NCBI GenBank assembly: GCA_032718475.1
Contig: JAUCBJ010007250.1
Span: 585-64,584 of the forward strand
Direction of reading: 5' to 3'
DNA from: Nemertoderma westbladi
Taxonomy: Eukaryota; Animalia; Xenacoelomorpha
Length of the DNA stretch: 64,000 bases
Of this stretch, positions 2,501-54,832 are shown piece after piece; the first letter of the stretch is position 1; each line of letters begins with the position of its first letter. The notes under the pieces are model-generated. The model ran no database searches and was not told where the DNA came from. It saw only the letters and a list, made by a program, of their open reading frames with translations. The position numbers were made by a program, and so were the translations under genes.

Positions 2501-2766
2501 TATCTGAACAATCTGAGCAGGGTCACACGCCTTCTGCTCAATATTAGCCTACTAGAAAATAAAACCGACAGAAATAGGTAAAATCTCAATAAAAATTCAG
2601 GGCTGCAGTCCCTGATTAAGTACTAAGACCTACCAGTATACAATAATCAAATCGAATAATACTAAATGTACTTGTACAGCAGTACCGGTACCGGTTATGA
2701 CAGTTAGGCCTACTGACCTACAGAAGTACCGGTTCTTTGCAACCCTATTGCCTACTGCAATAAGAT

Positions 2767-2779
2767 TATAAACTGTTAC
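2767..2779 (-). promoter_or_regulatory. Non-tRNA primer-binding site of C (GTAACAGTTTATA), complementary to LTR 3531-3543
   Basis: + strand TATAAACTGTTAC (2767-2779) and GTAACAGTTTATA (3531-3543) are a perfect 13-bp inverted pair; the site abuts the LTR. Confidence 0.75.
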
Positions 2780-4634: not shown

Positions 4635-4639
4635 CATAT

Positions 4640-8722: not shown

Positions 8723-8733
8723 GTAGGAATGTG
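8723..8733 (+). promoter_or_regulatory. Non-tRNA primer-binding site of A (GTAGGAATGTG), complementary to LTR 7663-7673
   Basis: CACATTCCTAC at 7663-7673 is the exact reverse complement; no TGG start. Confidence 0.75.
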
Positions 8734-9530: not shown

Positions 9531-12500
9531 ATGAGTGACAAACAAGACTATACGAAGAATACACAAACCGACTATGACTCATGTGACGCGGATAAGTCAG
9601 CAGCGGAAGAACCACAGGGGAAGACTCGCGAGCCTACCGAACCTACACCGTGTGCGTCACCAGTACATCCAACGGGAGTACCGGATGCCGTAGTACGAGG
9701 CGACGGCAGGACCGAGGACTTTCTAACTGTTCCGCAACCTAGATATAGGGAAACGGAAATGGTAAGTTCAGCAGGAAGCACAGAAAGTGTGGTTAGAAGC
9801 GTCGGTGGTTACATGGCGCATATTACCAGGAGTATTGGAGAAGGCCAACGCATATTAGACGGGTTGACCGCTCCGATGTCTCGATTCGAGTTCTACACCC
9901 TCCAGGTTAGAGTACAGAGTAAAGTATATAAGTCCGTAGATAATCTAGTTGGCCTACAAGATCTAGCTAGACAGAGACAGGACATGGATACTCAACTTAG
10001 AATCCTCGAGAAACTAATGATCACTAGAGAGAAACTGATTCAGTTTAAGTCGACGATTAGACAGATACAACAGGAACAAGCGGACCAGTTGCTAGGTGAG
10101 TCAGTTTCGGACGAATTATTACAGCCCGAGGAAGAACAGGAACTGTACCGACTGGATGGACAATTGAAACACCTGACGGATCACTTGCGCATGTGCGGCG
10201 AAGACGTCGGGGATTGGGAAACCGTGCCGGAGGCTACGAGGGAAACTTCACTCGCACAAATCGAACTGGCACCGGGAACACTAAATCAATCACTGGTGAG
10301 TATTCGTAGCGAAATCTGCGAAGGAAGTATGGTCACGTCAGAAGTCGCTCGACAACAGCAAGAATTCTGCCGACAACGACAAGAAATGGAAGAACAAGCT
10401 CAACTTCTAGTGATGCAAGCAGCAGTAGAGGAAGAGAAGCTACGCGTTGCGAATATAGTAAGAATATCTCATCTACAGGAACAAGCTGAATTAGAAGCAG
10501 CTGAAGTAGAAAGGTTAGAGTTAGACATTGCCCGACAAGCGGCAGCGGCAGCGGCCGAGTTAGAGCGACAAAACGCGGCGGCCGAGTTAGAGCGACAAAA
10601 CGCAGCGGCCGAACTGGAGCGACAAACGGCAGCGGCAGCGGCGGAATTAAAACGAGAAAGGTTAGTCTCAGAAGCACGGGCCGAAATGAGAACACGGCAA
10701 ATAAAAGCTCAATCTGCTATACGACAAGCAGAATTTGAGGCGCAACAACGACAAACGGAACAACGAGAGAAGACAGCTAAACTTCATTTCGAACTTGAGA
10801 AGAAGGCGAGAGAATTAGCGAACGCTGAGGAAGATCTGGATCAAAGGGCCCGCGATCGATCGATGAGATCTCGTGACGGACATGATTTGGACCAGTTAGA
10901 GGTAAGACATCGCCAAATTCAGGAACGGAAGAAGGAAGGAAGCGTAGGAGCACCCGGACGGGAACGACAATTAGTAAAGGACGTGTGTCAACGATTCCCA
11001 CAGGTAACTCATATGTTTGCACCGGTTACGACTAAGGAACCTGTTTCGATTGCGGGTAGTAGTAACATTTCTCCTATCCATGGTGCGACGGAACACAGGT
11101 TTGTTATTCCGGACGAGTTTACACCGCCAAGAGCAACGTCGTCGCCTATTCCGAAAGTCAAGGTAAGTAACCCACCGATTACGGATCGTAGTAGTTTATT
11201 GACCGGACCTGCACTACTGACGACAAAACAGGTGAGTCCACCGTCGACACCTAAACCCGTTACACACTACGCTTACCCAATGACGTTTCGACCAACAAGG
11301 CCTTTGGATTCAAATGCTGTCACTCGACCACCGGTTCAGTTTACATCGCAATCTACGACTTCGAGGAAGACTTGTGAGCCTACCGAACAACGGAGAACAG
11401 TGGATACGCGACCGGTTCAGTTTACATCGCAATCTACGACTTCGAGGAAGACTTGTGAGCCTACCGAACAACGGAGAACAGTGGATACGCGACCGGTTCA
11501 GTTTACATCGCAATCTACGACTTCGAGGAAGACTTGTGAGCCTACCGAACAACGGAGAACAGTGGATACGCGACCGGTTCAGTTTACATCGCAATCTACG
11601 ACTTCGAGGAAGACTTGTGAGCCTACCGAACAACGGAGAACAGTGGATACGCGACCGGTTCAGTTTACATCGCAATCTACGACTTCGAGGAAGACTTGTG
11701 AGCCTACCGAACAACGGAGAACAGTGGATACGCGACCGGTTCAGTTTACATCGCAATCTACGACTTCGAGGAAGACTTGTGAGCCTACCGAACAACGGAG
11801 AACAGTGGATACGCGACCGGTTCAGTTTACATCGCAATCTACGACTTCGAGGAAGACTTGTGAGCCTACCGAACAACGAAAGCGAGACGATGTTCCGAAA
11901 CGAACCGTTAGAATTAGTACGACGCAACGGACGCGAGCACGTCGACCACCATATCCAGATGATAGTAGTACTTCGAGCGAATCGGATTACCCGAAACGCG
12001 AGGTATTTAGAACAGGGGCGGCCGATGAATACAAACGCGAGCGTTCAGACAACTCCTTTGCAGACAATCCTCCACAGAATACACCAACACAGAAGGCGTT
12101 ACAACCAACGGACGCAATTAGTACACAACAGTTCGCCGACATCCTGCGACCAGTTGTCAATAAGTTGGCTCAAATCGAGGAACGTCTGGAGGAAGGTTAC
12201 ACCGACAGTTCGAGAAACTCCGAATTCGAACCCAATAAACACCCGAAGGAACCACAAAGACCGGTACCTTCAAACCCCACATCGTATCAAAGAAAAACGC
12301 CAAGAAGGGAGAACAACAACCCGGTTGCCAACCAAGGACGCGAAACTTTGAACGTTGCCGAGGAGATAGCGAAATTCGCAGCCAGACAGGGATTGCCGGT
12401 ACAACAACCACCGAAGTTTTCCGGTAGCTCAAAACACTGGCATACCTTCGTAGACTATATCGAATCCCAGATCGCCGTGTGCGCCTTTACATCACGGGAG

Positions 12501-15500
12501 AAGTTCAATTACCTGCTCCAAATGTTGTCAGGAGAACCTAAACGTTTGGCGGAGACCTTCGTTGGTGTACCGGACGCTTTCGAACTAGCGTACGATCGTT
12601 TGACTTCGATATACGGAGGTACAGTGAGTATGGCCAGGTCAGTAATAGAGGAACTCTGTAAGGGAGGGGCTATCACTAAACCCGTCGACTTACTAAAACT
12701 GGCTGACGAGATTAAGAACGCTATCACTACCTTAAGATCAATTGGACAACTTGATTACGGGAATACCCCTACAGTTCTATTAAAGATAATAGGACGACTC
12801 CACCATCGACTTCGTCGGGAGTGGAGGAAGGTCGAATACCAGCGAGAGGAGCGAGGAGGATTCCTAAAATTAGAAGATGTGTACCTTTTAATATCCAGGG
12901 AGGCGGTAGTTGAAACTCGATCTAACTATACCGACCAGCACATCGTGGCAGAAGGGATCACACTGCCATCCTCCAACCGACAAAAACCCCAGACAACATC
13001 CACAAAGACGGCCACTTACGCCACACCGACGGAATCACGACAATTCTCAGACGGTAATAGAGTATCTGCGCCCATTGGAACGAAACAGACGAGACAGCAA
13101 CTCAGCGCCGACTTCAACGGCTGCCAATACTGCGAACATTTAGGTAAGCGGTATATTGGTCACAAGTTACGAGGTTGTCGACAATTTCGCGAGTTGAACT
13201 CAGAAGAACGACGGCTGCAGATACGGCCACTGGACTCTTGTTGGCGGTGTACGCGACACGGACACGTCCGTAAGGATTGCCCAAATACCGACACTTGTCC
13301 ATCCTGTGGACGCAACCACGACGGTCTGCTCCACACAGACAGCCACACGCCGACGAAACGCTTCGCCAGGGAACACCCGGAAGCAGCAGCGAGATGTGAT
13401 GCGGCCTACCGAAAACGAGAATCGAAAACGACTCCAACATTCGTGACCCATATAGAGGATTGCTTTTCAGAACAATCCGGATCGTCGGACGAAGAATCAG
13501 ACGACGACGAATATTCTAATGGAGACGAACAACCGTCAATCGCGCTCCTGACCACTGACCAACTGAAGGGATTCAGTGTAATCCCGATTAAAGTTACTGG
13601 CACAAAGGGGAGCAAAAGAATCTACGCGATTCTAGACTCAGCCTCATCTCACAGTTACGTGGATGAAAAGATAGCTGACGTCGTAACGGATCTCAGACAA
13701 GGTAAACACGTCAGTTATACAGTAAGTAGTATGCACGGCCAGCGTGCAATACCAGTGACACGAGTTAAGTTGGACTTAGACTCTCTTCTTCCAAAATCGC
13801 AACACAGCGAGAGGGAGAGGTCTTTGTTGCCCTTTAGAGATCTAACCTTTGCGGCCACGAAGGACTTTAGTAACCTACTAGGTCCAGTGCCGGAACAATC
13901 TCTGGAGGACCGTAAGTATTTCAGACACCTTGGTGTACCCGAATGTCCTGTCAATTATAGATCGGTAGCAATGCTGATCGGGACGGACCAATTCAACCTA
14001 CATCAGGTGTGGGAAACCAGACCATCGGCAGTTGTAGCGGGAAACGCATACGCCTGCAGAACGCCGATAGGGTGGTATACTCGAGCGCCTGTGCGCACAC
14101 TAGACGTAAGTGACGAGGAAGACGACGTACAGAGTACATGTAGTTTATTGACTACAAACTCAATTCATTCCTTTTCACACGACGTGAACCATACTACGCT
14201 ACAGTCGACAAAACATGACAGACGTGTAACTAGTATGATAAGTCACAAGGAGCAGCTAACCCACAAGGTGAGTTTAGAACTTGGGGAGAAGACGAATCAG
14301 CTAGAGATTCCATCGACGACAGATGATAGGCTTGCGAGTCTACCTACCCCAACAACCTCAACAGTGCCCGTCGATATCGACGATGACGCGTTGAAAATTC
14401 ATCAGTTGGAACAAGCCGCCTTGGACAAAGAATTAACGGAGAAGACTATCAGGTGGTTAGAACAAGATACAGCTGAACCTGGTAGCTACGAACCTTGTAT
14501 GTCGGAACAGGAGAAACAATCTCTGAAGATCATGGAGGATACTATCCGACAGACGGAGGACGGACATTACGAGGTGGGTATGTTATGGCGTAGCCAAAGT
14601 CCTAAACTTATAAACAACTACCCACTGGCTTTAAGACGTCTACACTCAATACGGCAACGTCTATTAAAGGACGAGAAAGCCCATCTGCAGTACAACACTC
14701 AGATGGAGACGTATTTGACGAAGGGATACGCTATCCGAATGACTAACCCGGAGCAAGTGACCGACCAGACATACTACCTGCCACATCACTATGTGAGACA
14801 TCCCGACAAACCAGACAAAGTACGCGTAGTCAATGACTGTGCGGCTCTGTTTGAGGGAATGTCCCTCAATAGTGAGTTGATGGATGGACCGAACATGAAT
14901 AATTATCTTATGGGGGTGATTATGCGCTTCCGTCAGCGTCAAGTAGCCTTTACTTGCGACGTTGAAGCGATGTTTCACCAAGTGAAAGCGTTAGAGCGAG
15001 ACAGAGACAGTTTGCGGTTTCTCTGGTATCCGGAAGGGGACTTAAGTCTACCACCAGCGACTTACCAAATGCAAGTTCGCGTTTTCGGTGCCAGAGACAG
15101 CCCAAATTGTACGATGTACGCCTTGAAGCAAGCCGCTAGAGATCAGAAACATTTGTATGACCCAGAGATAATTAGAATTGTAGAACGTGACTTTTACGTT
15201 GATGACGGTTTACAAAGTTGCGACACAGTAGAACGTGCTACAACAGTAGCACATCAATTACGGGACTGCTTGGCGGGCGGAGGTTTTAACCTCACCAAAT
15301 TCGCCTCAAACAGTGCCGAATTAGTTGACTCATTCGGAACTACTGAGCGTGGAGGTGGTGACATAGACCTAGAGTTCGAACCACTACCGACGACTAAGGT
15401 GTTGGGGCTCTTTTGGGACCCAAACACAGACAACTTTCGAGTGAAGGTGAGACTGGACAGTCAAGGAAACACACTGACCAAGAGATCATGCTTGTCAAAG

Positions 15501-18500
15501 TTGAGCCGATTGTTCGACCCGTTAGGATTCATCAGTCCAGTGATACTGCAAGCCCGCATTTATATGCGCAGTATATGGAAGGATGGACTAACGTGGGACG
15601 AGCCGATCTCATCAGACCAAGTGGACTTATGGAAGACCTGGGAGGCGGAATTGTCTTCGCTAGAGGATTATTTCATACCCAGGGTTTACTTTCCATTACA
15701 GAGTACATTTCCTGACAACTTAGAACTACACTGTTTTTCTGACGCCAGTGACAACGGTTTTGGTGTGGCAGCGTATTTGCGCAGACAAGTAGAATCAGAC
15801 GAGTTCGATGTTTCGCTCATTACTTCCAAGGCTAAGACCATGCCTACTAAGTATATGACGACACCACGAGCCGAGCTACAAGCCGCGACCCTGTCAACCA
15901 CCATCGTGAACCTCATACAGACAGAACTACAGTCGAGTTTACAGATATTTTATTGGACTGACGCGACGTTGGTTTTATTTTACATAAACAACGACACACT
16001 CGAATTCAAGACATTCGTAGCTAACCGTCGCGCAGAGATTCTAGACCGTTCGATAAAAGAGGATTGGCGACATTGTCCCGGACCACAAAACCCAGCTGAT
16101 ATTGCGTCGCGAGGAATGATGCCTGAGGAATTCTGTAAACCGGAGAACAAAGAGTTTTGGCAACACGGACCCCAGTTCTTGCAGAAATCGACACAAGATT
16201 GGCCTCCGCTATACGACAACAAGTCCAACACCATTCCTAAGGACGCCGAAATCAAGAAACCAAAAAAGGGGAAGACAAAGAAAAGGACAACGGCGGCGAA
16301 ACTAAAGAAAAAACCGAAGGCGAAATGGAAGGATATAACTTCAAAGGTCAAGAGAGGAAGACTTGCGAGCCTTTCTACACCAGACATATCGCCAGACGGT
16401 CGACCAGACATATCGCCAGACGGTCAACCAGACACTTTACTAGACAGTCAACCAGACATTTTGCCAGACATATCACAAAATGTTCCACCAGACGCTAGTA
16501 ACACACTGACAAACAGTAAAGCCGCAGTTTCTCTATTGGAGCGGCCTTCTATTGACAAACAACTAGATACGTTACCAGACGTATCGCCAGACACATTACT
16601 AGACAGTCGACTAGACACTAGTAATGTATTGACTAACGATAAAGCCGCAGTTTCCCTATTGGAGCGGCCTTGTATTGACAAACTACCAATTTTGACACAC
16701 TTGAGCAACCATAAGCACGGTGAAACCTCATGTATTACAGATGTGGGTAGTACCTACGCTAATGTAAATACAGGTGTTACTCTGCGCTCAAGAGACATAC
16801 CGAACTTGCAACCTATAGTGAGACCTGGGATTAATGTCGGCAGGAAAATAAGTTTACCGAAACCTGCTGACCCCATAGAGTTCAAACCACCATTAACGAT
16901 CGACTTACAAAGTACCGACAATCAAGGTAAGAAGACGAAGAAGGACAAATTACTTGTAGACCCGGACGGATCAACAGTCAACAAGGGAATACTTACCGGC
17001 GGACCCGTGGGCCCTTCTAGTAATTCAAAACCTTCCAAAATCTCCATTGACTTACCTGATGACGTCACAAATACTTACGTCGACCGAATTGTAAACTTAA
17101 CAGACTCTTGGTCGAACGCTTGCCGAAAATTAGCGTGGATTGTACGTTTCGTACAATACGTTAAAGGCAAACGTGACTTTACACGTCGACTTACATTGGC
17201 TGAGATTGACAGGTGTGAGATTAAATTAATTCGCCATTACCAACTGCGATATTTCGCGCGCGAATTCACATCCATAAATCAAGGTCAACCAATCAAGTCG
17301 TCACCGATACTGAGTTGGAGTCCGATTATTTATAATGGCTTAATTTGTCATAAATCTCGGCTTCAAAACATTGACTTTAACACAAACTTTAGGTACCCAA
17401 TAATAATACCGCAACACCACGAACTACAACGTGCAATGATACTGGACGCACATTTACATCTGAAACACGCTGGAAGACACCACTGTCTTTCCTACTTACG
17501 TACTAGATTTGTATTAATTAGACCCAGTAAAGCATTGAGTTCAGTGACACGTACGTGTATTATTTGTAAAAAGGTACATTCTAGAATAGGTACCCAAGAA
17601 ATGAGTGAACTATCACAAGCACGACTTCAAGCATTCAGACCACCTTTTACAGAGACTGGAATTGATTGCTTTGGTCCCATACATACGAAACGTGGACGTA
17701 TACTAGTAAAACGCTGGGGACTGATTTTCACATGTATGTCCAGTAGGGCAGTTCACATTGAACGTGTGATGGATCTTTCCACCAACGCGTTTATACTAGC
17801 ACTGCGGCGATTTATCGCTAGACGCGGACTAGTAAAATGCTTGTACTCAGACCAAGGGACAAACTTTGTTGGTGCTCGGAATGAGATTGCTAGAGCCTTT
17901 AAGAGATTAGATCATGATCAAATCTCGAACGAACTGCAACCTCACAAGATTGTTTGGAAGTTTAATCCTCCAGATAGTCCTTGGAGAGGCGGAGTCTGGG
18001 AGAGATTGATTAGATCTATCAAAACGGCCATGGCAAAGGTCATTCCAGTAAACCACATATTAACAGACGACCAACTGACAACATTGTTTGTTGAAATCGA
18101 GGCAATACTAAATACTAGACCAATAGTATTAGTACCCGATGACAAACAATCTCAGTTCGCTTTAACACCAGCACACCTGCTTATGCAGGCACCGACCACA
18201 TTGACGCCGATTTCCATTCCAATGGAAAGTGATAGTTACGGTAGAAAAGCGTGGAAAATCACGCAACTACTGGCTAACAAATTCTGGGAAATATGGCAAA
18301 ACCATTATTTGCCCTCTATTTCTGCCAGAACAACATGGTACAATAACACCCGCGCATTAAAGCCGGGAGATCACGTGCTGTTGGCAGAAGTGAATCTAAA
18401 AAGACGCTTCTGGATAACAGGTGTCATTTTAGCCACACATCCATCTATGGATGGAGTGACAAGAACTGTGACGGTACGAACAATTGACGGTCGTACAGTA

Positions 18501-18587
18501 GACAGACCAACTCAACGTCTCGTACTTCTTGAAGAGACTCGTAACGAGTCTGGAGACTACAAATCTCCACCTAATACTAGTAAATAA
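9531..18587 (+). CDS. gag-pol: BEL/Pao Gag-Pol polyprotein (3018 aa)
   Basis: Coiled-coil N-terminus; PPKFSG...W Gag core; triple Cys/His cluster (CWRCTRHGHVRKDC, CPSCGRNHDGLLH); protease AILDSAS; RT YYLPHH and FYVDDG; RNase H HCFSDAS, PRAEL, YWTDA; integrase GIDCFGP, YSDQGTNF, WERLI. Confidence 0.97.
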   Translation: MSDKQDYTKNTQTDYDSCDADKSAAEEPQGKTREPTEPTPCASPVHPTGVPDAVVRGDGRTEDFLTVPQPRYRETEMVSSAGSTESVVRSVGGYMAHITRSIGEGQRILDGLTAPMSRFEFYTLQVRVQSKVYKSVDNLVGLQDLARQRQDMDTQLRILEKLMITREKLIQFKSTIRQIQQEQADQLLGESVSDELLQPEEEQELYRLDGQLKHLTDHLRMCGEDVGDWETVPEATRETSLAQIELAPGTLNQSLVSIRSEICEGSMVTSEVARQQQEFCRQRQEMEEQAQLLVMQAAVEEEKLRVANIVRISHLQEQAELEAAEVERLELDIARQAAAAAAELERQNAAAELERQNAAAELERQTAAAAAELKRERLVSEARAEMRTRQIKAQSAIRQAEFEAQQRQTEQREKTAKLHFELEKKARELANAEEDLDQRARDRSMRSRDGHDLDQLEVRHRQIQERKKEGSVGAPGRERQLVKDVCQRFPQVTHMFAPVTTKEPVSIAGSSNISPIHGATEHRFVIPDEFTPPRATSSPIPKVKVSNPPITDRSSLLTGPALLTTKQVSPPSTPKPVTHYAYPMTFRPTRPLDSNAVTRPPVQFTSQSTTSRKTCEPTEQRRTVDTRPVQFTSQSTTSRKTCEPTEQRRTVDTRPVQFTSQSTTSRKTCEPTEQRRTVDTRPVQFTSQSTTSRKTCEPTEQRRTVDTRPVQFTSQSTTSRKTCEPTEQRRTVDTRPVQFTSQSTTSRKTCEPTEQRRTVDTRPVQFTSQSTTSRKTCEPTEQRKRDDVPKRTVRISTTQRTRARRPPYPDDSSTSSESDYPKREVFRTGAADEYKRERSDNSFADNPPQNTPTQKALQPTDAISTQQFADILRPVVNKLAQIEERLEEGYTDSSRNSEFEPNKHPKEPQRPVPSNPTSYQRKTPRRENNNPVANQGRETLNVAEEIAKFAARQGLPVQQPPKFSGSSKHWHTFVDYIESQIAVCAFTSREKFNYLLQMLSGEPKRLAETFVGVPDAFELAYDRLTSIYGGTVSMARSVIEELCKGGAITKPVDLLKLADEIKNAITTLRSIGQLDYGNTPTVLLKIIGRLHHRLRREWRKVEYQREERGGFLKLEDVYLLISREAVVETRSNYTDQHIVAEGITLPSSNRQKPQTTSTKTATYATPTESRQFSDGNRVSAPIGTKQTRQQLSADFNGCQYCEHLGKRYIGHKLRGCRQFRELNSEERRLQIRPLDSCWRCTRHGHVRKDCPNTDTCPSCGRNHDGLLHTDSHTPTKRFAREHPEAAARCDAAYRKRESKTTPTFVTHIEDCFSEQSGSSDEESDDDEYSNGDEQPSIALLTTDQLKGFSVIPIKVTGTKGSKRIYAILDSASSHSYVDEKIADVVTDLRQGKHVSYTVSSMHGQRAIPVTRVKLDLDSLLPKSQHSERERSLLPFRDLTFAATKDFSNLLGPVPEQSLEDRKYFRHLGVPECPVNYRSVAMLIGTDQFNLHQVWETRPSAVVAGNAYACRTPIGWYTRAPVRTLDVSDEEDDVQSTCSLLTTNSIHSFSHDVNHTTLQSTKHDRRVTSMISHKEQLTHKVSLELGEKTNQLEIPSTTDDRLASLPTPTTSTVPVDIDDDALKIHQLEQAALDKELTEKTIRWLEQDTAEPGSYEPCMSEQEKQSLKIMEDTIRQTEDGHYEVGMLWRSQSPKLINNYPLALRRLHSIRQRLLKDEKAHLQYNTQMETYLTKGYAIRMTNPEQVTDQTYYLPHHYVRHPDKPDKVRVVNDCAALFEGMSLNSELMDGPNMNNYLMGVIMRFRQRQVAFTCDVEAMFHQVKALERDRDSLRFLWYPEGDLSLPPATYQMQVRVFGARDSPNCTMYALKQAARDQKHLYDPEIIRIVERDFYVDDGLQSCDTVERATTVAHQLRDCLAGGGFNLTKFASNSAELVDSFGTTERGGGDIDLEFEPLPTTKVLGLFWDPNTDNFRVKVRLDSQGNTLTKRSCLSKLSRLFDPLGFISPVILQARIYMRSIWKDGLTWDEPISSDQVDLWKTWEAELSSLEDYFIPRVYFPLQSTFPDNLELHCFSDASDNGFGVAAYLRRQVESDEFDVSLITSKAKTMPTKYMTTPRAELQAATLSTTIVNLIQTELQSSLQIFYWTDATLVLFYINNDTLEFKTFVANRRAEILDRSIKEDWRHCPGPQNPADIASRGMMPEEFCKPENKEFWQHGPQFLQKSTQDWPPLYDNKSNTIPKDAEIKKPKKGKTKKRTTAAKLKKKPKAKWKDITSKVKRGRLASLSTPDISPDGRPDISPDGQPDTLLDSQPDILPDISQNVPPDASNTLTNSKAAVSLLERPSIDKQLDTLPDVSPDTLLDSRLDTSNVLTNDKAAVSLLERPCIDKLPILTHLSNHKHGETSCITDVGSTYANVNTGVTLRSRDIPNLQPIVRPGINVGRKISLPKPADPIEFKPPLTIDLQSTDNQGKKTKKDKLLVDPDGSTVNKGILTGGPVGPSSNSKPSKISIDLPDDVTNTYVDRIVNLTDSWSNACRKLAWIVRFVQYVKGKRDFTRRLTLAEIDRCEIKLIRHYQLRYFAREFTSINQGQPIKSSPILSWSPIIYNGLICHKSRLQNIDFNTNFRYPIIIPQHHELQRAMILDAHLHLKHAGRHHCLSYLRTRFVLIRPSKALSSVTRTCIICKKVHSRIGTQEMSELSQARLQAFRPPFTETGIDCFGPIHTKRGRILVKRWGLIFTCMSSRAVHIERVMDLSTNAFILALRRFIARRGLVKCLYSDQGTNFVGARNEIARAFKRLDHDQISNELQPHKIVWKFNPPDSPWRGGVWERLIRSIKTAMAKVIPVNHILTDDQLTTLFVEIEAILNTRPIVLVPDDKQSQFALTPAHLLMQAPTTLTPISIPMESDSYGRKAWKITQLLANKFWEIWQNHYLPSISARTTWYNNTRALKPGDHVLLAEVNLKRRFWITGVILATHPSMDGVTRTVTVRTIDGRTVDRPTQRLVLLEETRNESGDYKSPPNTSK
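11330..11878 (+). repeat. 81-bp coding tandem repeat (~6.8 identical copies, 27 aa unit) in gag of A
   Basis: Unit RPVQFTSQSTTSRKTCEPTEQRRTVDT; GGAAGACTTGTGAGCC recurs at 11365, 11446 ... 11851. Confidence 0.97.
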
Positions 18588-19248
18588 TTAGGAGTTTACA
18601 AATAGACTTCCACGTACCTGTACACCGTAGTAAGGACAGCGGTAGAATTCCATTGTCTTTATATGTGAACATTGAGGGTAGTACCCTTATGTGTCACATA
18701 GGAGCGGGATTTGTAGGTATAAGAAATGGAATTCTACTTGGAACTCACAATATTGAGACATTTTCGAAATTTTAGACAATCCATTTGGATTTGAAAAATT
18801 TTAAAAATTTTCTCCAGTGAATAGATTTCAGGGTACAGTCGGGTGGAACTTAAAATTAGAGAAACAAGAGAGGAAGACTTGCGAGCCTTTCTTAAAATTT
18901 TTAATTAAATTTTACACGGTCTTGTTTCAATAAGTTACGTCAAAATAGACTCACCTATATTTATTACTAATTCTTGATTGCTTATTTTCTGATAATAGTT
19001 TGGGATCAAAAGGTGAGTATTTTAGACTCACGGCCAGTTTAGCCCAAATTCGTTTTTACTTCGGCAAAAAATTTTAGATAAGAAGCAGCGTGTCATTAAA
19101 GAAACCCTAGATCTTAGGCTATGGGTAGGAGGTTAGAGCGTTGTCGAAGCCCAAAGGGCAGACGAAACTCTCACGTCTCCTCACAACTAACTACAAACTC
19201 TGTTGTATTCCCTCTAGTAGTAATGATTATGTAACTACACCTCTAATT

Positions 19249-22200
19249 ATGGAGAAAGGGACACAAGGAGAGCCAAGATGGGGATATGATATCCAAGAGG
19301 AGGCAGCAGCGCCATTCGAAAGATTTGGAGCCAAGGATTACACTATATTTGGTATAAAAGAATTATCGGAAAGTACAGCGAAACTCGCGAGAACTAAATA
19401 TGACTCGAATGTATTAAAGAGAAGGCAAAACGCATTAAACGAAAGAATCGAAAGTTTGCGCCAAACCTTCAACGAACTTTACCCGTACGATGCTTTGTGT
19501 GACACGGGAGACATTAGCGAAGACCCCGATACTGAAATTAGTCGTTTGTATCATACCATGCAATACCTAAAGGCGCATGAACCTATGCCTGCGGTACGCG
19601 ATGAATTCGATGGAATGCATCTTTACAGACGAACTCGAGGGGACGATAGAGAAACCAAGGAAGCATTTTCAGTTTATAAACTTTATTATCAATGCGGTTC
19701 TTGTATGCGCGAACAACGAAATGCGATTCCGATGCGTTTGAATAAGGAAAATCCCGAACCGATATTGGCGAGGTGTTCGAATCATCAACAACTACGCTAC
19801 CAGGAAGGAGGGTATCCTTTATCGAATCCATATCATTCATTTGCTATGACCGGACCAAAGGCGGGAGAAACTGTCATTTACCCACCTAAGGTTGTTGAAC
19901 CCGATGTATTTGAACTTACGCTGGACGAGGCGAATCAGTCAACCCGCGAAAAGAAAGAAGCTCTTAGCCTATACAGAGCCTACAAGGCTTTCGAGAAAGG
20001 TGAGATGGAAGAATGGGGTGGAAGACTCGCGAGCCTACCTTGCCATTGGACGTCACACGATCAAACTTCAGCTAAGGAGATGACACCGGAAGTTTTCGAG
20101 AGCATAAACTTTGCTCAAAACGTTATTCAGAGATTACAGATTGCATCCCCGGAGAGGCCAAGAGAAATGCAACCGTATAGTACTTCAACTACGAAACCAT
20201 TGAGTACGACACTCAATTTCCCTATTAGTATACCAGTCCGACAGGATACGACGTACGAAATACCCATCGTGGATCATCCAGAAATCATTTCAAACTTGGA
20301 GTTTCTTCCTGCAGTTGTTTTCAGCGATATGAGTAAGATATATGATTTGCGTAGACATATTACTCAAAAGGTCGTGAACAACGTTCCACCTCATATTCAA
20401 GATTTTAAGGAACTGGATAGAGCTGGTGCCGACATAGCTCCGAGTAATCTGAAAGGATATCTAACCAAGACGATTCGTTTATGGATTGGAATCGGAACCT
20501 TCGAGTCGGATACGGATATTGCCGCAGATTGGCGAGGTAAGGTTATTCGTTTCGATGAGGATAAGGATATAGAGAAGATTTGGCAACCTTCGGAAGAATT
20601 GTTGGATGAATGGACTAGGACGTTTAGATCGTTTCAGGAAAACGGTTATATGTTTTACGATAACGAGGGCGGCAGTCATCAGCAGAGTTTGACTTCTAAG
20701 ACTATACAGATTAGAGCGGCGGACGGAGTCCTGCACGTTTTCAGTAGACAGAGGAGCGACAAACGAATGCCGATACCTCCAGCGAATACAAAGCGACACC
20801 ATCTTATCACCGATATAGTAAAGAAGATGGACCAAGCTTGTAATATTGACGCTAGAATGCTACCGAAGATGGTAAGAAACATGATTTTAGATAAAACTGT
20901 TGTAAAGGTTGGATCAGGAGTAAGGGAGGATTTAATTAGCGACTTCGTTGGCATGACGGACAGCGATGACCGACTACCGACACCATACGTCGACACTCGA
21001 CCTCTTATTCTGTGGTCTATAGAACAGGGATATTTTCGTGAGTATAATACTCAGAAGACTGGAACTGGATACATTTCCTACCTGTTATTCAATTGGGATT
21101 ATAAGGAAGGTAAAAGAAACAAGTATATTGAAACTTATGGAGAAGGTGATACTCCAGATATGAGTGAGTTTGAATCACAGCTTAAATGGAGAGGATGCGT
21201 GTATTGGGCTATTACGTCACCTCCAAGAGCGGTCTTACAATATTATTTAGCGATAGAGTCGTCAGTGAATGTTTGCCTAATCGCCGACATCGTGTCTCGG
21301 ACTCTCAAAAGACATCCACTTTGTCTCGGAGAAGATCATACGTTCTACATGGAAGGGAGAATTCGTACCGACGTGTTTAGACGATTCCTTGAACCCTTCT
21401 ACAACTCCGACGCTCAGTGCAATGCCTTTACTCGAGCAGGATTTAGTATATTTCGAGACGTGTATCTTCGCTGTGCGGGATCTCTTATCGAAAGACCATC
21501 TATGTTTACACTGTTACCCTATGAAGGAGAACGTATCGTGGAGATTACGGATGAATCACGGCAGACGCGCGCGCCTATCGGTCACCTTGGTGATGAATTC
21601 GAAGTAACTACTACGATCGCCGACGATCCTTTAGAGGAACTTCTTGAGATAGAAAGGAACCTCCCGAAGAAATCTCAGACGGAGATTCGACAACTTGAAG
21701 CAACAGATGCTATAGTTTGCCTACAACCTTCAGAAACCTACCAACCCATAGACCCAGATGATTACGATTATAGTATGGGAGGAAGCGCTCGACCGATTGG
21801 AGATCTTATATACGAACGAGTGTGGTACCCTGCTAATACGATGTGTAGTAAATGTGGCGTCGCTGGACATCATATGGCAAAGTGCAGTGGAAAGCACATT
21901 ACTACGACTCAGCTAATCTGTGGATGGTGTGGGGATCAAGGGTCTCATACCTTTTATACTTGCTGGAGATTTATGGCTCAATGTACTTACTGCAATATAA
22001 AGGGACATCGAGCATCTGAATGCCAACTGAGAGACATACCTTATGAACATGAATCTGTAAAACTCGTGAGGAAGTTATTTGATGAGTGGGAAGATTTGGC
22101 CGACGAACATGTATCGGCACAGAGAAGACGGTTTCCGATGAGAGCGCATCTCGGATTTTGGGCGGTAAATCCCCAGACGATGATGTCGGAAGGATACATC

Positions 22201-22974
22201 TCCGCTATGCCCCAATATGACGAACTTATCGAGGTTGTTGATATTTTGCCCCACGACAGCGGATTCCGAGTGGTGCGTGAGTATCTGTTACAGATTCACC
22301 CAGATAACAAAAACACGTGGAATTTTCAGAAAGTCGTAAATCGTATCACGTATGGTGAATTTGATCGTTTCCGAACCGAAAAGCGGAATAAAGGAGCTTG
22401 GTTAACCGTCGCATGGGCGTACCGAGCCGCGTTTTACCATAAACGTATACGAGCGAGCGTATTCGAGGAAGAAGAGGTCCTAGAGGCGACGAATATATCA
22501 GCCACTCCGGTTGCGCCGTCTGCACGTCACCCTCGGGAGGACGGGCAGGGTAGGATCATACGGGTCCAGAAAGTGGGCCAACAATTGAAGAAAATTATTA
22601 ATGTGGAAGAACGCAAGGGAGTTGAGCCGACTATTCGAGTTACTCGGGATACGGTATCACTTCCAAGAGAACCGGTAGGAGGATCGGGACATACACCAGC
22701 TGATCAACAGGGGGCGCAAGCTACTCTTGGGTCTGCGTCGTCCACTCCTCGCGCGTTCCCAGACGTTCTACCAACTGTAGCGACAACTGATCGGTCACGA
22801 GGAATTGGTCGAGGTTTTGGGATGCCAAATAGACGAATTTGCGAGGAAATAGTCGCACCGTCTCTCAACGTCCCAAGTAAACCAGTGACTCGCCCCAATA
22901 GTCCCATATCGCGAGCAAAGTCACCTGTGCGCAGTTTTCGAGGACGCGGCAGGGCTCGATCTACTAAGCGATAA
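19249..22974 (+). CDS. Element A ORF2: DEDDy-like 3'-5' exonuclease fold plus three CCHC zinc knuckles (first ATG 19249)
   Basis: IQIRAADG, LPKMVRNMILDKTVVKVGSGVREDL, YVDTRPL, YYLAIES resemble WRN/EXD2-type exonuclease motifs in order. Knuckles CSKCGVAGHHMAKC, CGWCGDQGSHTFYTC, CTYCNIKGHRASEC. The ORF is certain; the domain call is by eye. Confidence 0.75.
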   Translation: MEKGTQGEPRWGYDIQEEAAAPFERFGAKDYTIFGIKELSESTAKLARTKYDSNVLKRRQNALNERIESLRQTFNELYPYDALCDTGDISEDPDTEISRLYHTMQYLKAHEPMPAVRDEFDGMHLYRRTRGDDRETKEAFSVYKLYYQCGSCMREQRNAIPMRLNKENPEPILARCSNHQQLRYQEGGYPLSNPYHSFAMTGPKAGETVIYPPKVVEPDVFELTLDEANQSTREKKEALSLYRAYKAFEKGEMEEWGGRLASLPCHWTSHDQTSAKEMTPEVFESINFAQNVIQRLQIASPERPREMQPYSTSTTKPLSTTLNFPISIPVRQDTTYEIPIVDHPEIISNLEFLPAVVFSDMSKIYDLRRHITQKVVNNVPPHIQDFKELDRAGADIAPSNLKGYLTKTIRLWIGIGTFESDTDIAADWRGKVIRFDEDKDIEKIWQPSEELLDEWTRTFRSFQENGYMFYDNEGGSHQQSLTSKTIQIRAADGVLHVFSRQRSDKRMPIPPANTKRHHLITDIVKKMDQACNIDARMLPKMVRNMILDKTVVKVGSGVREDLISDFVGMTDSDDRLPTPYVDTRPLILWSIEQGYFREYNTQKTGTGYISYLLFNWDYKEGKRNKYIETYGEGDTPDMSEFESQLKWRGCVYWAITSPPRAVLQYYLAIESSVNVCLIADIVSRTLKRHPLCLGEDHTFYMEGRIRTDVFRRFLEPFYNSDAQCNAFTRAGFSIFRDVYLRCAGSLIERPSMFTLLPYEGERIVEITDESRQTRAPIGHLGDEFEVTTTIADDPLEELLEIERNLPKKSQTEIRQLEATDAIVCLQPSETYQPIDPDDYDYSMGGSARPIGDLIYERVWYPANTMCSKCGVAGHHMAKCSGKHITTTQLICGWCGDQGSHTFYTCWRFMAQCTYCNIKGHRASECQLRDIPYEHESVKLVRKLFDEWEDLADEHVSAQRRRFPMRAHLGFWAVNPQTMMSEGYISAMPQYDELIEVVDILPHDSGFRVVREYLLQIHPDNKNTWNFQKVVNRITYGEFDRFRTEKRNKGAWLTVAWAYRAAFYHKRIRASVFEEEEVLEATNISATPVAPSARHPREDGQGRIIRVQKVGQQLKKIINVEERKGVEPTIRVTRDTVSLPREPVGGSGHTPADQQGAQATLGSASSTPRAFPDVLPTVATTDRSRGIGRGFGMPNRRICEEIVAPSLNVPSKPVTRPNSPISRAKSPVRSFRGRGRARSTKR

Positions 22975-23828
22975 AAGGGAGGGCAAGGGTGGACGGAAGA
23001 CTCGTGGGCCTTTCTTATGATTTGTGATTTATTTTGAATTATATGTTTTATATTTAGAAAACTTATGCAATTTGTATTGTTCCGAATTTATGAAATTTAG
23101 AAAGTTTATATTTAGAAGGAACTTATATTTGAAAGATTTATGTTTCATATTTGAGATGCAAAAGGTTTATATTATTTTAAACTTATGCAGTTTATATTTA
23201 TATTTAAGTAAAGACTTATATTTAGTAAGATTTATATTTAGTAAGAATTTATATTTTATATTTACGTGATTATTTCGAACTTATGCAATTTATATCATTC
23301 CGAACTTATGCAATTTATATTGTTCCGGATATTATGCAATTTATAAGCAGTATTTGTATTTACAGTGAAATAGAAAGTTTTATAGATAGAAAATTTTGTG
23401 CTCAGAAAGACTCATATTTGTAATTATTCCAAACTTATGCAATCTACATTTAGGTACGAAAGTATTTGTAATTACTTGAATTTATGCAATATTTGAGATG
23501 CAATAGTAGATGGAAGACTCGCGAGCCTTTCTTATTGTTTTCATTTATTTGTATTTGTAATTGTTTGAATTTATGCAATATCTGAGATGCAATAGATTTA
23601 TATTGGTGAATTTAATTTAGATTTATATTGTACTTACTTAGTAAAGCCTTAACTACGTAAAGTTTGAATTTGTAATTATTTTTGTATCGAATCATTACGT
23701 AAAAAGGAAGTATTGTTTGAAATTTAATTGTAAATATGTAAGTACGCCCTAAGTATTCTATAGTTTGATTGATTATTGGTGAAAACCGTATATTTTATGC
23801 ACGATAATATCCTGTTTTCATGGAGCGG

Positions 23829-25749
23829 TATAGAATTATATTCCCTAAATGCCGTGGATTTTCAAAATTTTATTTTATTCGAATTAACTTTGTAAAGATT
23901 GCTTTGAGTTCTCATTAGTATTGGTTCTATCTATTATGCATCTATCGGTCAAGTGGTTCAGTAGCTCAGTCGGTAGAGCGTTGGAAATTATATGTGTAGT
24001 AGGTATCGAGTTCGAATCCTAATAAGTGCGAATTATTTTTTGTGCAGAATTTCAACTCATTTAAATTAACCGCTACAAATTAATTGCATTTGTCTGTACC
24101 AATGAGACCGTAGTTATTTGATTGTAACCAATGTCGTGCAAGTTATATATTAGCTGGACCAATAGCTATCTTTAAAACCTTGTTAGAATCTATAGAACAA
24201 TCGAGAATTTTCTCGATTGATTGCGGCACAAATTTAGTATATAAAGGTGCGATTTCGTTCATTAGTATACTTACACAAACTAATTCAATCCATCATTCAC
24301 TTTCTGTCTTATTTCAGATTACATTGTTTATTGTATAATAGTTATTATATCTTTTGTAATAAAAGTCAGAAATACTAGTCACATCTCAGCCCTTTTCTAT
24401 CTGTTTTACTATGGTTTCACTACGGTGAACAAACTCAGGGACAGGATGGCCGGCTAGAGATCGGGCCGCAGCAATGAACGGGAACATCACGGGAATGTAG
24501 ACGAGAGACAACCCGCAATACCATCTTAGAGTTATTCGCCCATCGCCTGAAAGGTTAGACAGCGTTCGATCCTTGCTACCTAAGTGTAAGACCAAAAGAT
24601 CAAAGGTAGACGTAGTGACGCGCTGTAAGCCCAAAATTACATCATAAGGACTGTACTGTCTTGATTCAGGAAAACCCACAGTAGACCTTCACATTCCTAC
24701 GGGGGGAGGGAGAGAGAGCAGATACTAGTACGCAGATAGGACGTAGGCACACCGGTACAAGGCATACACATTGGTTAGGGTGCAGCAAACTGTACGCTTA
24801 ACTCTTGCTAAGTACAGGTGTGTGTGCGACTATTTGCCGTACAACAGTGTCCATTACATCAGAACTTGTAGGCTAGGGGGTTGCTGTGTTTTCACCTGAA
24901 TTGGGATTGTACCGTTCAGGCGGTAGGGCAGTTTACGCTAGGCGCAAATAAATTGAGGCTATCAGGGATATACTAACATCTACCGTGTCCCCGCCAACGC
25001 CCTAATAGGAAGTTACCCGGACTACCTGGGTGACTAAAATTCTAGATAGGAGCCAGGATAGCTATTAGTACCCGTACGCCTACAGTAGTAAACTAACACA
25101 TCTCTTCTTAGTATCAGGGACCTGGTACCTAAAATTGCCGAATTCTGGGCGTAGTATTAACCTTATGCCTGAATTTGAGTCCTGGAAATACGCAAGAGGG
25201 GAAGGAACCTTATCATTCGTGAGTATTGGACCTACAAGTTATAAAATTAGAATATTCGTAAAATGCACACCGTACCCAGTAATTATATATGTGAAGGAGC
25301 AAAACTGTTTTTTGACCGTTCAGAATTAACACACGCGCGTTAGAAATTATTTACACCTCGAAATATATAAAATTAACTTAGTCCGTACTGTGCTTTGCCC
25401 GCTAGTTAGACATCTCCAAATCTGCTCTATACCTAGCTAGCGTCCCTTTGCCCAACCATATAAATCACACCGCGGCAAAGTATACGAGCCTCTTAGTCCG
25501 TCAGTGAGTCAGCCTGATTTTAGGATTCGCTGCGCGGGATTTTGTTTTATCGAAGTTTGTCTGCTCGTAGACTGTTTTCTGCCTCACCGGTTATAAGAGA
25601 TCGATACTGCAATATATTCGCTTACTTAGGGTTTACTGTTTTGGTGAGAAGGTCGGATTTATGATTTGATTTACAAACTTTACAGTAGGATATTGCAGGT
25701 ATTGTTACCGTCTCTTCCGATAGTAGGAATAGGCGTATCTCTTCAATTA
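23829..25749 (+). repeat. 3' LTR of element A
   Basis: Direct repeat of 6802-8722, preceded by TTTTCATGGAGCGG and followed by the TSD. Confidence 0.95.
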
Positions 25750-27600
25750 GAGACATTGTGGACCTTGATACCATTCCAAAACGTAGTCGTTGTCACTGCT
25801 CCTGGGCTCTGTGGGTTGAATCTCCTCGGATTCTAAGCAAATTAGTTCGTCTTCCAATTGCATAGCTGAGGTAGGTGTAGCTGTCTCCTCAAGCGAACCC
25901 ACTGTTTGAACTTCCACAATAGAATAACCTGTGGGGATTCGGGGTCTTTGTATAACAGAGGAATGTAAATTCTGTATACAAACGTCCTTGAAAATGGCGA
26001 ATCCAGCGCTGTGTAACTTCTCAGCAGCTGAGTCTCTTAGGCTGAGCTTGGTCAGAGCGCGGTCCTTGAACTGACTATCAACGTTACGGAACGGAGTCAG
26101 AAAGCGCCTAAAGCATTCGAAGCGGATGAATTGATTGTGTTCATCTAGCTTGGCGAGTTTGGTTCCAAGTAACAAGGGATGGGCGCGTATAGTACGACTG
26201 CACACATTGGCTAGCCAACCGGCAAGTGCGGCGTTCTCGAAGATAGTGTATATAGCTAATGAGGGACGAAGTGGAACACTCATGAAGCTATAAACAACGC
26301 CAGGTGCGGTCAATGGTCTGTCGAAGTATAATCGAGAATAATGATCTCCATATACTTGTTGATAGTTGATAGGGTTTCCGACTTTGAAATTCCATCCGTA
26401 TTCTTGAAAGGCAAGATGTCTGATGGAGGTTCGTTGTACTTTATTGATGCCGCTGGATGTATTGGCATACATAGTGTGGAAGAAACCTCGGCCTTCTGCC
26501 CAGGGAGCAATCAGCTGGGTGTCTACGAAAGGATATGGGATATTCTCCATATTCCTGTTGTATTCCTAATATGTCTTCCATTGATGGTAGAGAGCAGGGG
26601 AAAGCCTATGTCGTATTCAGAAATATTCATAAATACGATCTCAGTAGGAGGATTCAACATTCGAAGACCATCTCCAAATGAATTTATCCCCAATCATTAA
26701 GGGAGGTGAACAACCAGATTTATGACACATAATGGTACCAGCTGTTCACAGACTATCCGCGTGTCCTTTCAGTCCTTGTATCACGGTCGTGGACTTGAGG
26801 AAATTAGGGGTGGTTGATTATCTAATCAACAACAAGAGGAGTAGTGGTTGATACTATGAATATCAACACAATGGTACAGGGACAGGAGGTGCGGACACCA
26901 ATATAAGCATCCAAATAAACAGTAAGGGATGGGGAGGTTTAGTAGGAGCGGTACGATCAATACCACGACACCACTATGATTGATCGATCATCTCCCAAAA
27001 GCGCCGAGTGTGTTGGGAAGAGAAGATGGGAAGAAGAGGGTTTCTCTATCAACGTCTTGTATCCTCGATATCGATAGATAGAGGGAGAATAGTAGTAGGG
27101 AGGAGGAAGTATATGCGTGTAGTATCTATAAGATACCACAATGGACATGTTTTCCCTTTACGTCATTACTCATTCTTACTCTTTGATTGTGACACTGATC
27201 ACAATAATTGCAGGAAGAGGATGAAGTAAGAGGAAATTACAGCCTCCCGAAGGAGACCGTCCGCGAGCACCCGCGCCCCGGGGAAAACTATTCACATTAT
27301 GGACCCTGGACATTAATGTATGGTTTTTCTCCAGATGGTTCTCCTCTACTTGTCTTTACAAACATTCTTCCACATTCTCTCTTTCGATTTCGAATAGAAT
27401 TTTCGTGTTCGATTCTCAGTTTATCGTTCCGACTCCGCTGGGTATGATATTTAAATAGGATCATTTCCCTTTCGGTGTCTACATCGTCCGTATCGTGTAA
27501 ATCGATAGGATGACCAGTAGTTAAGAAGTCCATATACGTACCATTACGATGCGTATAGCAAGCGGTGAATTTTCTATAGTCCAATTCACGCGTGAGCTGT
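25750..27600 (-). pseudogene. N-terminal and middle parts of element B ORF2 (disrupted)
   Basis: IPYPFVDTQLI, YGWNFKVG, FRRFLTPFRNVD, AGFAIFKDV align with A ORF2 (PTPYVDTRPLI, FNWDYKEG, FRRFLEPFYNSD, AGFSIFRDV). The frame is broken upstream of ~26600, so the upstream limit is approximate. Confidence 0.8.
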
Positions 27601-29485
27601 CCTTTGACATTGGCGGTTCGATATAACGGCCATCATCCTCCGTAGTGGGTTGACTAGCATCGCCGCGTATTAAACCGCAATATCAACAAATGCTTGCAAT
27701 GGTAGGGTATATCGCTCCCTGATACCAAGATCATCTTCTATCAACTCAGCCATAGCTGCTATATGAGTTTATCAATATTATAATTAATTATAATTTAGGC
27801 TAGCGGTCGTCGCTGCCTCCCCCTCAATGCCCCCGGACAGCGCAAGATCCTCAGCGCTGATGTACTGTCACCGCTGTGCCTCTCGCCAACGTAGTAGCTA
27901 CACAACGACAACAATAACCAGCGCGAGTCACTCCACTGTCCGTCCCAAGGGCTTAGAATTACTTCAGGTTCTTGCTACAGAGGTAGGGCAACTTTCACAA
28001 CTGCGACTCGCTACTGTAAACACACTTTAGTAGTAACATTCACCTATAAACGCACAAATTCCACACAACTGTCACAAATTGTACATATTCGGGCCATTTG
28101 TCCGTTAGTCAAGTGCCTTCCAGAATGCCATGTTATTATTATGTATCCCTGGATACTAGCAGTGTGCTATTTATTCCGTATGTTATTCAATGGGGCAAGC
28201 TTTCTATTGTTCTTTTAACTCGCTTCTAATTCTAGCGTGGTTGTTGCTATGGTGACATTATATGGAAAGCTAGCAGTAGAATTAGGGTAATTCTCATGCA
28301 TACAGATCTGGGATGCTATTTAATAGTAATTCTTTAATTGTCAATATTCCCCTTTATACATGATTTTATGAATTTTATCGGCTATTGACTAGATATTGGA
28401 GATTCTCGCACACTAATATACTTAATAGGGTGAATCTCCGCTCCCATGATCTATTAATTAATGGAATTTTGGGAATGTTATAAATTGTATAAAATGACAA
28501 TTTATCAAATTCATGAGAGGATATGAATTTAAATTTATTTCCGTAAATTTTATTATTTAATATTAAAATAGACACAATTTTATTCCAGAACATGTCTGGG
28601 GACTAAGATCCTTAATTCTAGGGAATTTGTCCTTTTTAAGAGTATCGGTAAGTGCTATGATATCTTAATCGACAAGAATTTTAAAGGACCTGAATCCCAA
28701 CAGATCTGGACCTATAGATTTTTTTTTCGGCTTACAAACTCCTTAGAGTCTATTTGTCTGCATTTACTCCATTATAACATTTGTTTTAATAGATTTTTGT
28801 AAATATTAAATAGTTAATATTTAAGATGGGCACCGATTTATTCCAGAACTTGTCTGGGGACGTTAACCACTGATTCTAGAATTTTGTCTTTCAAGTATAT
28901 CGGTGGGTGACGCGATATCTTAATCGACTAGAATTACAGATGGTCAAAGGGTTTAACAGATTTATTTTGCGTTTTACGCTACTGTTAAATGGACATCATT
29001 CTACTATATGTATTATTTAATATACGGTATGAGAGCAATATTGTAAGAAGCAATGTCAGTAAGAAGAGGCAAGTCGTTTCCAAGGTCTACCCAGAGCTTG
29101 GTTTAGCAGAGACACAAGGATCTGAACTTTGCATTCCTAATACTCTACTTACCAATAATACTTGAGTATAGTAGGAGCTTTATTGTACTTTAATAAGTAC
29201 AGACATTTCATCTTACTGTAGTCACATATTTATAATATAATACGGACAGTAAGGAAAGAGAAAAAGAATTATTTCTCGCCGTCGCACTAAATATATAATA
29301 TATAAGTAATTAAGTAATAAACGCGAATATATATTGCACTAATCTACTAGATAATCGCTAAAATAACATTCTACTAAATAAAATTAAAGAAAACGATTAT
29401 AATAAAATTACATAATAATACATACATAAATATAAAATAATAAAAACAAATATAAAATATAGTCACACAAACACTCCAGCTGTTG

Positions 29486-30292
29486 TTAAGTTAGGGAGTC
29501 CCTAGATGTTTGTTGGATTAGGGAGGTGGTCGTGGGAAGAGTATCTTGCCTTCCATAGTTTCCGGAGAGTTCTCTGTCTCTTTCCAGTAAACATAAACGA
29601 CCAACTGGGCGATTGAGCTGCTGTGTCTCGATGACAATTCCAGGTTTCCTCTTCGTCCTGGAATAGTGACGATAGAAACATCGCTTCAAATACGCAACGG
29701 CCTTACAAAGCCGATTCCAGGATCTATAGTGGTCCATCGCTCCCGGCAGGAGAGGTGAGAGTCCCGGCGAGACGTCTGGTGTTACAGATCTCCATGCTCT
29801 CTCTCTGATCTCCACAACAGATCGGTTCGCGGTGGGGGAGTTTAGATCCACAGTGTCGTCCCTGGCAATGTGTAATACAGACAGATCTATCACGGGTTTA
29901 AATAACCTTGATTTACTCGTCCGGGTTTTAGGTTTGAGTTTCTCCGCTCCCTTGGCTTGTCTAATCTCAGCCGTGGTAAGATGGGGAGGCCATTCATCTT
30001 CTTTACTTAGGAAGTTGGGTCCACCTAACCAGTCTGGAGTATCTGTCAGTTCTTGAGGAGTTGCTCCTCTGGAAGCGACATCAGCTAGATTAATCGTCTC
30101 GGGACAATGTCTCCATTGATCTACATTGGAGTTAATATCGTCATTATCTGAGGAGTATGGCGTTCCCTCAGTTGGGTCGTCTACCTCACTGCTCTCCGCT
30201 TCCCATTCACTTACTTGGTATACCCGTTCAAAAAAAAACCGTTCGTTTAAAAAATATAAAATAATGTAGTCACATACCCACTCCAGACGCTG
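29486..30292 (-). CDS. Internally deleted, diverged duplicate of B pol (linker segments only), stop-free and in frame with the pol stop
   Basis: Mosaic of ~34100-34200, ~31860-32340 and ~30293-30457; both junctions keep the frame; no upstream ATG. Confidence 0.6.
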   Translation of the reverse strand, partial: QRLEWVCDYIILYFLNERFFFERVYQVSEWEAESSEVDDPTEGTPYSSDNDDINSNVDQWRHCPETINLADVASRGATPQELTDTPDWLGGPNFLSKEDEWPPHLTTAEIRQAKGAEKLKPKTRTSKSRLFKPVIDLSVLHIARDDTVDLNSPTANRSVVEIRERAWRSVTPDVSPGLSPLLPGAMDHYRSWNRLCKAVAYLKRCFYRHYSRTKRKPGIVIETQQLNRPVGRLCLLERDRELSGNYGRQDTLPTTTSLIQQTSRDSLT

Positions 30293-54800: not shown

Positions 54801-54832
54801 ACAGTAGAGCCTTATCTTTTAACTGAAAATCC

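Follow-up and report, generated by a model that had tools for sequence, protein, structure and literature searches.

The DNA considered here, a window of 64,000 nt from contig JAUCBJ010007250.1 of the Nemertoderma westbladi assembly GCA_032718475.1, contains an intact BEL/Pao long terminal repeat (LTR) retrotransposon, element A, which occupies 18.9 kb (6802-25749) and carries a second open reading frame, ORF2, in the env position. The first-pass annotation of this stretch had described a frame of about 1240 amino acids (aa) there, and one of 1241 aa does follow the BEL/Pao gag-pol, starting 661 nt after that frame ends. The sequence of ORF2 makes it very probable that the protein carries a DEDDy/DnaQ-type fold. 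The parts of the element and of ORF2 are as follows.

6802 to 8722, plus strand: 5' LTR of element A, 1921 nt long with TA..TA termini; the 5-nt target duplication GAGAC lies outside it
9516 to 18587, plus strand: BEL/Pao gag-pol frame of element A (3023 codons, stop to stop)
19249 to 22974, plus strand: ORF2, accessory protein of 1241 aa, an open frame without a stop
20647 to 20667, plus strand: ExoI motif YMFYDNE (D471, E473), aligned to EXD2 D108/E110
20905 to 20931, plus strand: ExoII motif KVGSGVRED (D561), aligned to EXD2 D171
21244 to 21258, plus strand: ExoIII-like YLAIE (Y666, E670), placed by pattern and family alignment only
21844 to 22023, plus strand: three CCHC zinc knuckles, with yeast Air2 as their best match in the PDB
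22080 to 22300 (approximate limits), plus strand: unnamed conserved domain after the knuckles, with invariant E, A, D, R, G, P and Y in all five sequences compared
23829 to 25749, plus strand: 3' LTR of element A, with the purine tract GGAGCGG before it

The gag-pol frame contains DUF1759, Peptidase_A17 and DUF5641 above the Pfam cut-off. The two LTRs differ by 3 mismatches in 1921 nt, and the element is a recent insertion, a young copy of 19 kb. Within ORF2, an N-terminal sequence of about 440 aa precedes the nuclease region, in which further motif positions are IQI at 20704, KVGSGVREDL at 20905, YVDT at 20986 and YYLAIE at 21241. The three knuckles and Arg-rich tail reported earlier are both present, the knuckles starting at aa 866, 891 and 912 (span aa 866-925) and the tail having 13 Arg among its last 60 aa; a weak knuckle match is all that Pfam returned for ORF2. 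A possible C-x2-C...C-x2-H zinc site also lies in the N-terminal part (19693-19788, aa 149-180). Hydropathy, in a 19-residue window, reaches its maximum of 1.38 at aa 661, on the ExoIII helix, and the scan found no transmembrane segment, with none of the five best windows near the N-terminus. The absence of a signal peptide or membrane anchor is therefore borne out as far as a hydropathy scan can tell, and so low a maximum makes an env role unlikely.

Searching 1.84 billion representative sequences with aa 340-1070 of ORF2 gave five matches at E<=0.001, of which P0003 and P0006 were dropped because they match through the knuckles only. The others (P0004, P0005 and P0007) are unnamed metagenomic ENA proteins of 558-715 aa, each the sole member of its 90% cluster, and share a layout of nuclease-like domain, acidic linker, three zinc knuckles and a further conserved domain. 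Word-index protein searches gave no match for ORF2 aa 340-1070 or for the family alignment, P0004 finding itself only, and the DNA context of ORF2 and these three relatives was not found in metagenome contigs, viral contigs or plasmids. A five-sequence profile of the nuclease region placed human EXD2 at the top of 177,635 PDB sequences (E 2.3e-4), followed by Egalitarian (0.027) and WRN (0.26), the last among noise matches to HIV reverse transcriptase (RT) p51. ExoI and ExoII are in register in this alignment, which sets D471, E473 and D561 of ORF2 on D108, E110 and D171, three residues of an EXD2 active site that also includes Y242 and D246 (PMC6648332). In a profile made from the three outside relatives alone, the alignment with ORF2 spans all three motifs (within the window, E 2.8e-20), and ORF2 by itself matched the NCBIfam DnaQ/epsilon family weakly over ExoI (E 0.028). 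The WRN/EXD2-type motif order first read from the sequence by eye is thus supported by both the profile search and relatives with clear motifs.

The assignment of ExoI has changed. The decapeptide WIGIGTFESD (20482), previously taken for an altered ExoI, was rejected, as it lies about 55 aa upstream of the region shared with the relatives; the true ExoI is YMFYDNE, in which the D-x-E is intact and aligns with DTE, DVE and DTE in the relatives. The earlier suggestion of a catalytically dead enzyme rested on that misplaced motif and is not supported. In ExoIII the Tyr is invariant in five of five sequences, and the acid, Asp in DEDDy enzymes, is Glu in A (E670), B and P0005 but Asp in P0004 and P0007. 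With ExoI intact, D561 of ExoII and Y666 of ExoIII retained and a Glu as the final acid, activity is more likely than a dead enzyme; these residues make catalysis probable, and the Asp-to-Glu change in ExoIII is the sole remaining source of doubt.

The window also holds a second BEL/Pao element, element B, which runs along the minus strand (41474-4640, about 18 kb without element A) and whose pol is 44-46% identical to that of A; gag-pol includes DUF1759, Peptidase_A17, integrase and DUF5641 in both. Its coding region is broken into several frames, and its ORF2 is split because element A inserted into it:

25777 to 26547, minus strand: element B ORF2 from YVDT through ExoIII (YTIFE at 26250-26236) to the linker
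5822 to 6801, minus strand: the part of element B ORF2 on the far side of the inserted element A, comprising the knuckles, the conserved domain and the basic tail

The claim of a clear homologue in element B holds for these parts, which align with aa 574-843 (27% identity, E 1.6e-20) and aa 886-1030 (31%, E 2.3e-17) of ORF2. Nothing of aa 1-575 matches B above shuffles, and five frameshift-aware alignments upstream of 26547 did no better than the best of 15 shuffles; two-element conservation is therefore confined to the stretch from YVDT onward. By eye, the element B DNA upstream of 26547 resembles decayed coding sequence. A third, B-like element, C, has its 5' end at 1-4020 and its ORF2 beyond the window.

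Variation among family copies was taken from contigs of four sequencing runs covering element A, run X1 alone contributing 23,336 records. Across the nuclease region (20560-21330), 40 of 72 variants were listed; 29 of these were silent and 11 not, where the same types of change would by expectation give 12.0 silent, for a ratio near 0.16. The nominal p of 4e-8 overstates this excess, because the variants are linked among copies yet were classed singly. Variants in the codons of E473 and D561 were silent, and among the variants listed none fell in D471, Y666 or E670 and none in the region was an indel. In the gag-pol comparison 19 of 27 variants were silent; outside the nuclease region of ORF2, three of the five listed change a residue, all in aa 1084-1217. 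The comparison of family copies that the first-pass annotation had proposed hence shows a nuclease domain under purifying selection, with constraint rather than an arms race.

That result bears on the proposal that the nuclease works in trans as a counter-defence, degrading or mis-trimming small silencing RNAs or their precursors, or competing with Nibbler/Mut-7 and EXD1. A silencing role was raised by Rodriguez et al. (PMC5408684), and it would suit a product of a separate spliced message, outside the polyprotein, that diverges faster than pol (27-31% against 44-46% identity), in a family whose contigs in run X1 and closely similar LTRs mark it as abundant and recently active, and in which some copies do without the nuclease region, as a trans-acting product would allow. 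The silent excess speaks against it, as do the bdelloid DEDDy ORFs, which did not clearly track copy number (PMC5408684). Such a role is considered somewhat unlikely.

The message from which ORF2 would be translated is indicated by two further features:

9141 to 9146, plus strand: splice donor GTGAGT of the leader-to-ORF2 joint
19186 to 19217, plus strand: acceptor AG with a pyrimidine tract and an ACTAAC resembling a branch site, 31 nt upstream of the ORF2 start codon

A joint from 9139 to 19217 with GT..AG ends occurs in one contig of run X2 and, whether that molecule was RNA or a processed copy, implies splicing. Depth in X2 rises toward the 3' LTR, a slope that we infer to resemble that of poly(A) RNA; none of the listed runs is on record as RNA, and the DNA label of X2 is a guess. 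ORF2 is likely expressed from spliced RNA, as env genes are. Because element A splices out gag-pol, its unspliced RNA would need export, and ORF2 might instead be an RNA-binding adaptor with little or no catalysis, in the manner of Egalitarian, EXD1 or Maelstrom, or a Rev-like export factor comparable to CERV of Cer1, moving or packaging unspliced genomic RNA. The knuckles and Arg-rich tail are what such a protein might have, Egalitarian is the second PDB match, ExoIII has Glu in A, B and one of the three outside relatives, and CERV is itself made from spliced RNA (PMC10309623). Nevertheless, the four acidic positions and the Tyr are kept in all four sequences covering them, at 22-27% identity. 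Dead members of the family usually lose these residues, and the adaptor is unlikely, although it and counter-defence rank as close rivals of the reading favoured below.

A candidate substrate lies within the element itself, at the primer-binding site (PBS):

8723 to 8733, plus strand: PBS of element A, directly after the 5' LTR and complementary to 7663-7673
7663 to 7673, plus strand: 11-nt exact complement of the PBS, the predicted self-primer

The corresponding PBS and complement are 40644-40634 and 41390-41380 in element B (11 nt), and 2779-2767 and 3543-3531 in element C (13 nt). Hence each of the three has a perfect complement of 11-13 nt inside its LTR for a PBS match ending exactly at the LTR edge, and the pairings of B and C differ by compensating changes. 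Shuffled LTRs produced such a match in 4 of 20,000 cases for A and 31 of 20,000 for B. In a predicted fold of 7663-8800, for which a transcript start at 7663 was assumed, the PBS pairing probability exceeds 0.92 at 10 of 11 positions. Self-priming of the Tf1 kind in BEL/Pao was mentioned in none of the titles or abstract openings among the matches listed, and the self-complementary PBS of these three elements is possibly of more interest than ORF2.

Taken together, the reading favoured here, with somewhat less than an even chance of being right as a whole, is that ORF2 is an active EXD2/WRN-type 3'-5' exonuclease, made from a spliced message as an accessory of the BEL/Pao lineage. Its zinc knuckles would hold the nuclease on the element's own RNA, where it would trim single-stranded 3' ends back to duplex, most plausibly at the 11-nt self-primer; trimming of a single-stranded 3' tail would fit a less precise first cut. 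The part of this proposal that names the element's own RNA as substrate, and primer trimming as the task, is slightly more tentative still. Among the three functions first suggested for ORF2 (primer trimming, interference with piRNA processing and support for copying a very long RNA), the first is predicted to fit the anatomy of the element best. In its widest form, that a BEL/Pao lineage abandoned tRNA priming for self-priming, with a spliced, knuckle-guided DEDE exonuclease maturing the primer, the idea is rather unlikely; if true, it would represent a two-part priming system undescribed for LTR retrotransposons, and a protein family of nuclease, three knuckles and unnamed domain with relatives elsewhere. 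The third function, an aid in proofreading or processing by analogy with nidovirus ExoN, might suit elements of 18.9 kb (A) and about 18 kb (B without A), and EXD2-type enzymes can act on DNA (PMC6648332). However, the nuclease domain is not fused to the RT, and the larger LTR elements Burro (>30 kb) and Ogre (16-25 kb) are presented without such a domain in the portion of PMC6431247 that describes them, leaving this function very improbable.

Five sets of observations weigh against the primer-trimming exonuclease. Firstly, the profile match to EXD2 ends before ExoIII, where ORF2 has Glu for Asp; the single-sequence PDB search with ORF2 found no nuclease, and Pfam exonuclease families matched none of the five family members. 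Secondly, structure models of ORF2 are poor, with a predicted local distance difference test score (pLDDT) of 31 from the single sequence and 43 with an alignment. Foldseek did rank EXD2 first, although with an E of 0.2 and a TM of 0.14. In the VIA comparison with 48,161 chains no match had Z>=5, and a coronavirus spike took the top row (Z 4.2, root-mean-square deviation 4.5, 99 residues aligned). Thirdly, the splice joint has a short side of 29 letters, against a caution threshold of 30, and is listed in one of four runs; moreover, if ORF2 is translated on its own, its product would need a way into the particle. Fourthly, neither ExoI nor ExoII, nor any other part of aa 1-575, is found in element B above shuffles; elements A and B are kin, rather than independent cases; and the deletion joints 19388>21419 and 19408>21533 (depth 479 in run X2, 491 in run X3) have deprived some copies of the greater part, or the whole, of the nuclease region, so that the nuclease may not be needed in cis. 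Fifthly, Tf1 makes its 11-nt primer by RNase H alone, as that system is summarised in PMC7175516, and Terminons and Dada DNA transposons have DEDDy domains without LTR priming (PMC6431247, PMC3706591).

The second set would also allow the exonuclease likeness to be chance or a remnant, with ORF2 a divergent env or some other fold, given that no single-sequence or structural match is significant and that a spike heads the VIA rows, albeit below significance. A viral glycoprotein had been named at the outset as the rival match to watch for, and the viral structure search, made with the poor model, gave no match at E 0.001. With no hydrophobic anchor in ORF2, and with motifs that follow the EXD2 order and stay in register with it, such a reading is scarcely to be expected. 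The model of pLDDT 43 does have the three-strand start and final helix expected of an RNase H-like fold. Six of the 50 VIA rows have titles naming exonuclease I, WRN, Nibbler (two), RNase D or ISG20 (Z 2.8-4.0), and seven are DNA polymerases, matched where we take the proofreading domain to lie; these nuclease and polymerase rows are a hint only.

Several other features of the elements were observed. The LTRs of element A end in TA..TA (6802, 25749) rather than in the TG..CA that is usual for BEL/Pao LTRs and present in those of element B, and its target duplication is clean; short duplications flank both elements (GAGAC for A, ATATG for B). Near the LTR start of A is a tRNA-like stretch with A-box/B-box-like motifs (6925-6995, 23952-24022), in which ARAGORN called no tRNA. 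Its gag contains seven in-frame 81-nt tandem repeats (11249-11977), and in its pol RNase H and integrase are separated by a long insert of low complexity (about 16280-17000) with 12-nt repeats at 16379-16629. In element B there are Ala-rich 9-18-nt repeats (37062-37580) and internal duplications (29441-30455, 29650-30131), one copying part of pol (31857-32341, 90%), and the 5' LTR is about 270 nt shorter than the 3' LTR. Elsewhere in the window are an endonuclease fragment (3997-4650, minus strand), a 15-nt repeat in inverted arrays about 1 kb apart (47483-48603), like a foldback or miniature inverted-repeat (MITE-type) element, a non-LTR element with endonuclease and RT (48952-53159, plus strand) and a Ty3/gypsy-type element with 282-nt LTRs (53132-58349, minus strand).

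ORF2 is a known kind of gene, because DEDDy ORF3s have been published for bdelloid Ty3/gypsy elements. The earlier caution over novelty was therefore apt: Rodriguez et al. described them in 2017 in the LTR elements Juno and Vesta, and in Terminons, with DEED in place of DEDD and no test of their function (PMC5408684). As that description has it, the Juno and Vesta ORF3 resembles ORF2 in being a non-env frame after pol with a DEDDy exonuclease that retains its catalytic residues except for one Asp changed to Glu, and in having no transmembrane segment, and bdelloid ORF3s generally come from spliced messages, as the joint suggests for ORF2. By the same account their hosts belong to a bdelloid gypsy-like clade, whereas that of ORF2 is BEL/Pao; their motif is DEED, whereas that of ORF2 is DEDE; and ORF2 differs in its three knuckles, its further conserved domain, its N-terminal sequence and its purifying selection, set against neutral-looking env and GDSL ORF3s sequenced in bdelloids (PMC5408684). 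ORF2 is set apart by description, as none of the searches returned the bdelloid DEDDy ORF3 sequences.

Among host enzymes, the EXD2/WRN exonuclease domain (PDB 6k17, 2e6l) is the best profile match, although EXD2 is membrane-anchored with Asp in ExoIII (PMC6648332), and its ExoII and ExoIII are 71 aa apart, compared with 105 in ORF2. Terminons and Dada are likewise mobile elements with a captured DEDDy nuclease, for which 3'-end processing has been proposed, but they have no LTRs or PBS, and the domain of Dada is part of its transposase (PMC6431247, PMC3706591). Tf1/sushi elements share an 11-nt PBS complementary to their own LTR sequence, the first 11 bases of Tf1 pairing with the PBS and RNase H cutting after base 11; unlike element A, they belong to the Ty3/gypsy group, and no extra nuclease is described for them (PMC7175516). 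The roo element and the mosquito carriers of a Chuviridae-like glycoprotein are BEL/Pao elements with an extra captured ORF, as is element A, although theirs are membrane fusion proteins (PMC13524379), and ORF2 is anchorless with a predicted enzyme fold.

No DEDDy-type gene in BEL/Pao appeared in titles or abstract openings among the matches listed, a coverage outside which Repbase Reports and most subscription journals fall, making prior annotation possible. Hence ORF2 is best regarded as a real, constrained accessory gene with a predicted nuclease product, its BEL/Pao host superfamily and its architecture being what is new for its kind, and it widens the range of BEL/Pao cargo in the env position. 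What the DEDDy nucleases that retroelements have captured are for has been a question since 2017, at which time they were seen only in low-copy rotifer elements. Element A, intact and young, adds an abundant family from another superfamily, together with signs of selection on the domain, a splice joint and, in the 11-nt primer/PBS duplex, a defined substrate to try. With these the question can be put to the test, using the purified domain and a short RNA.

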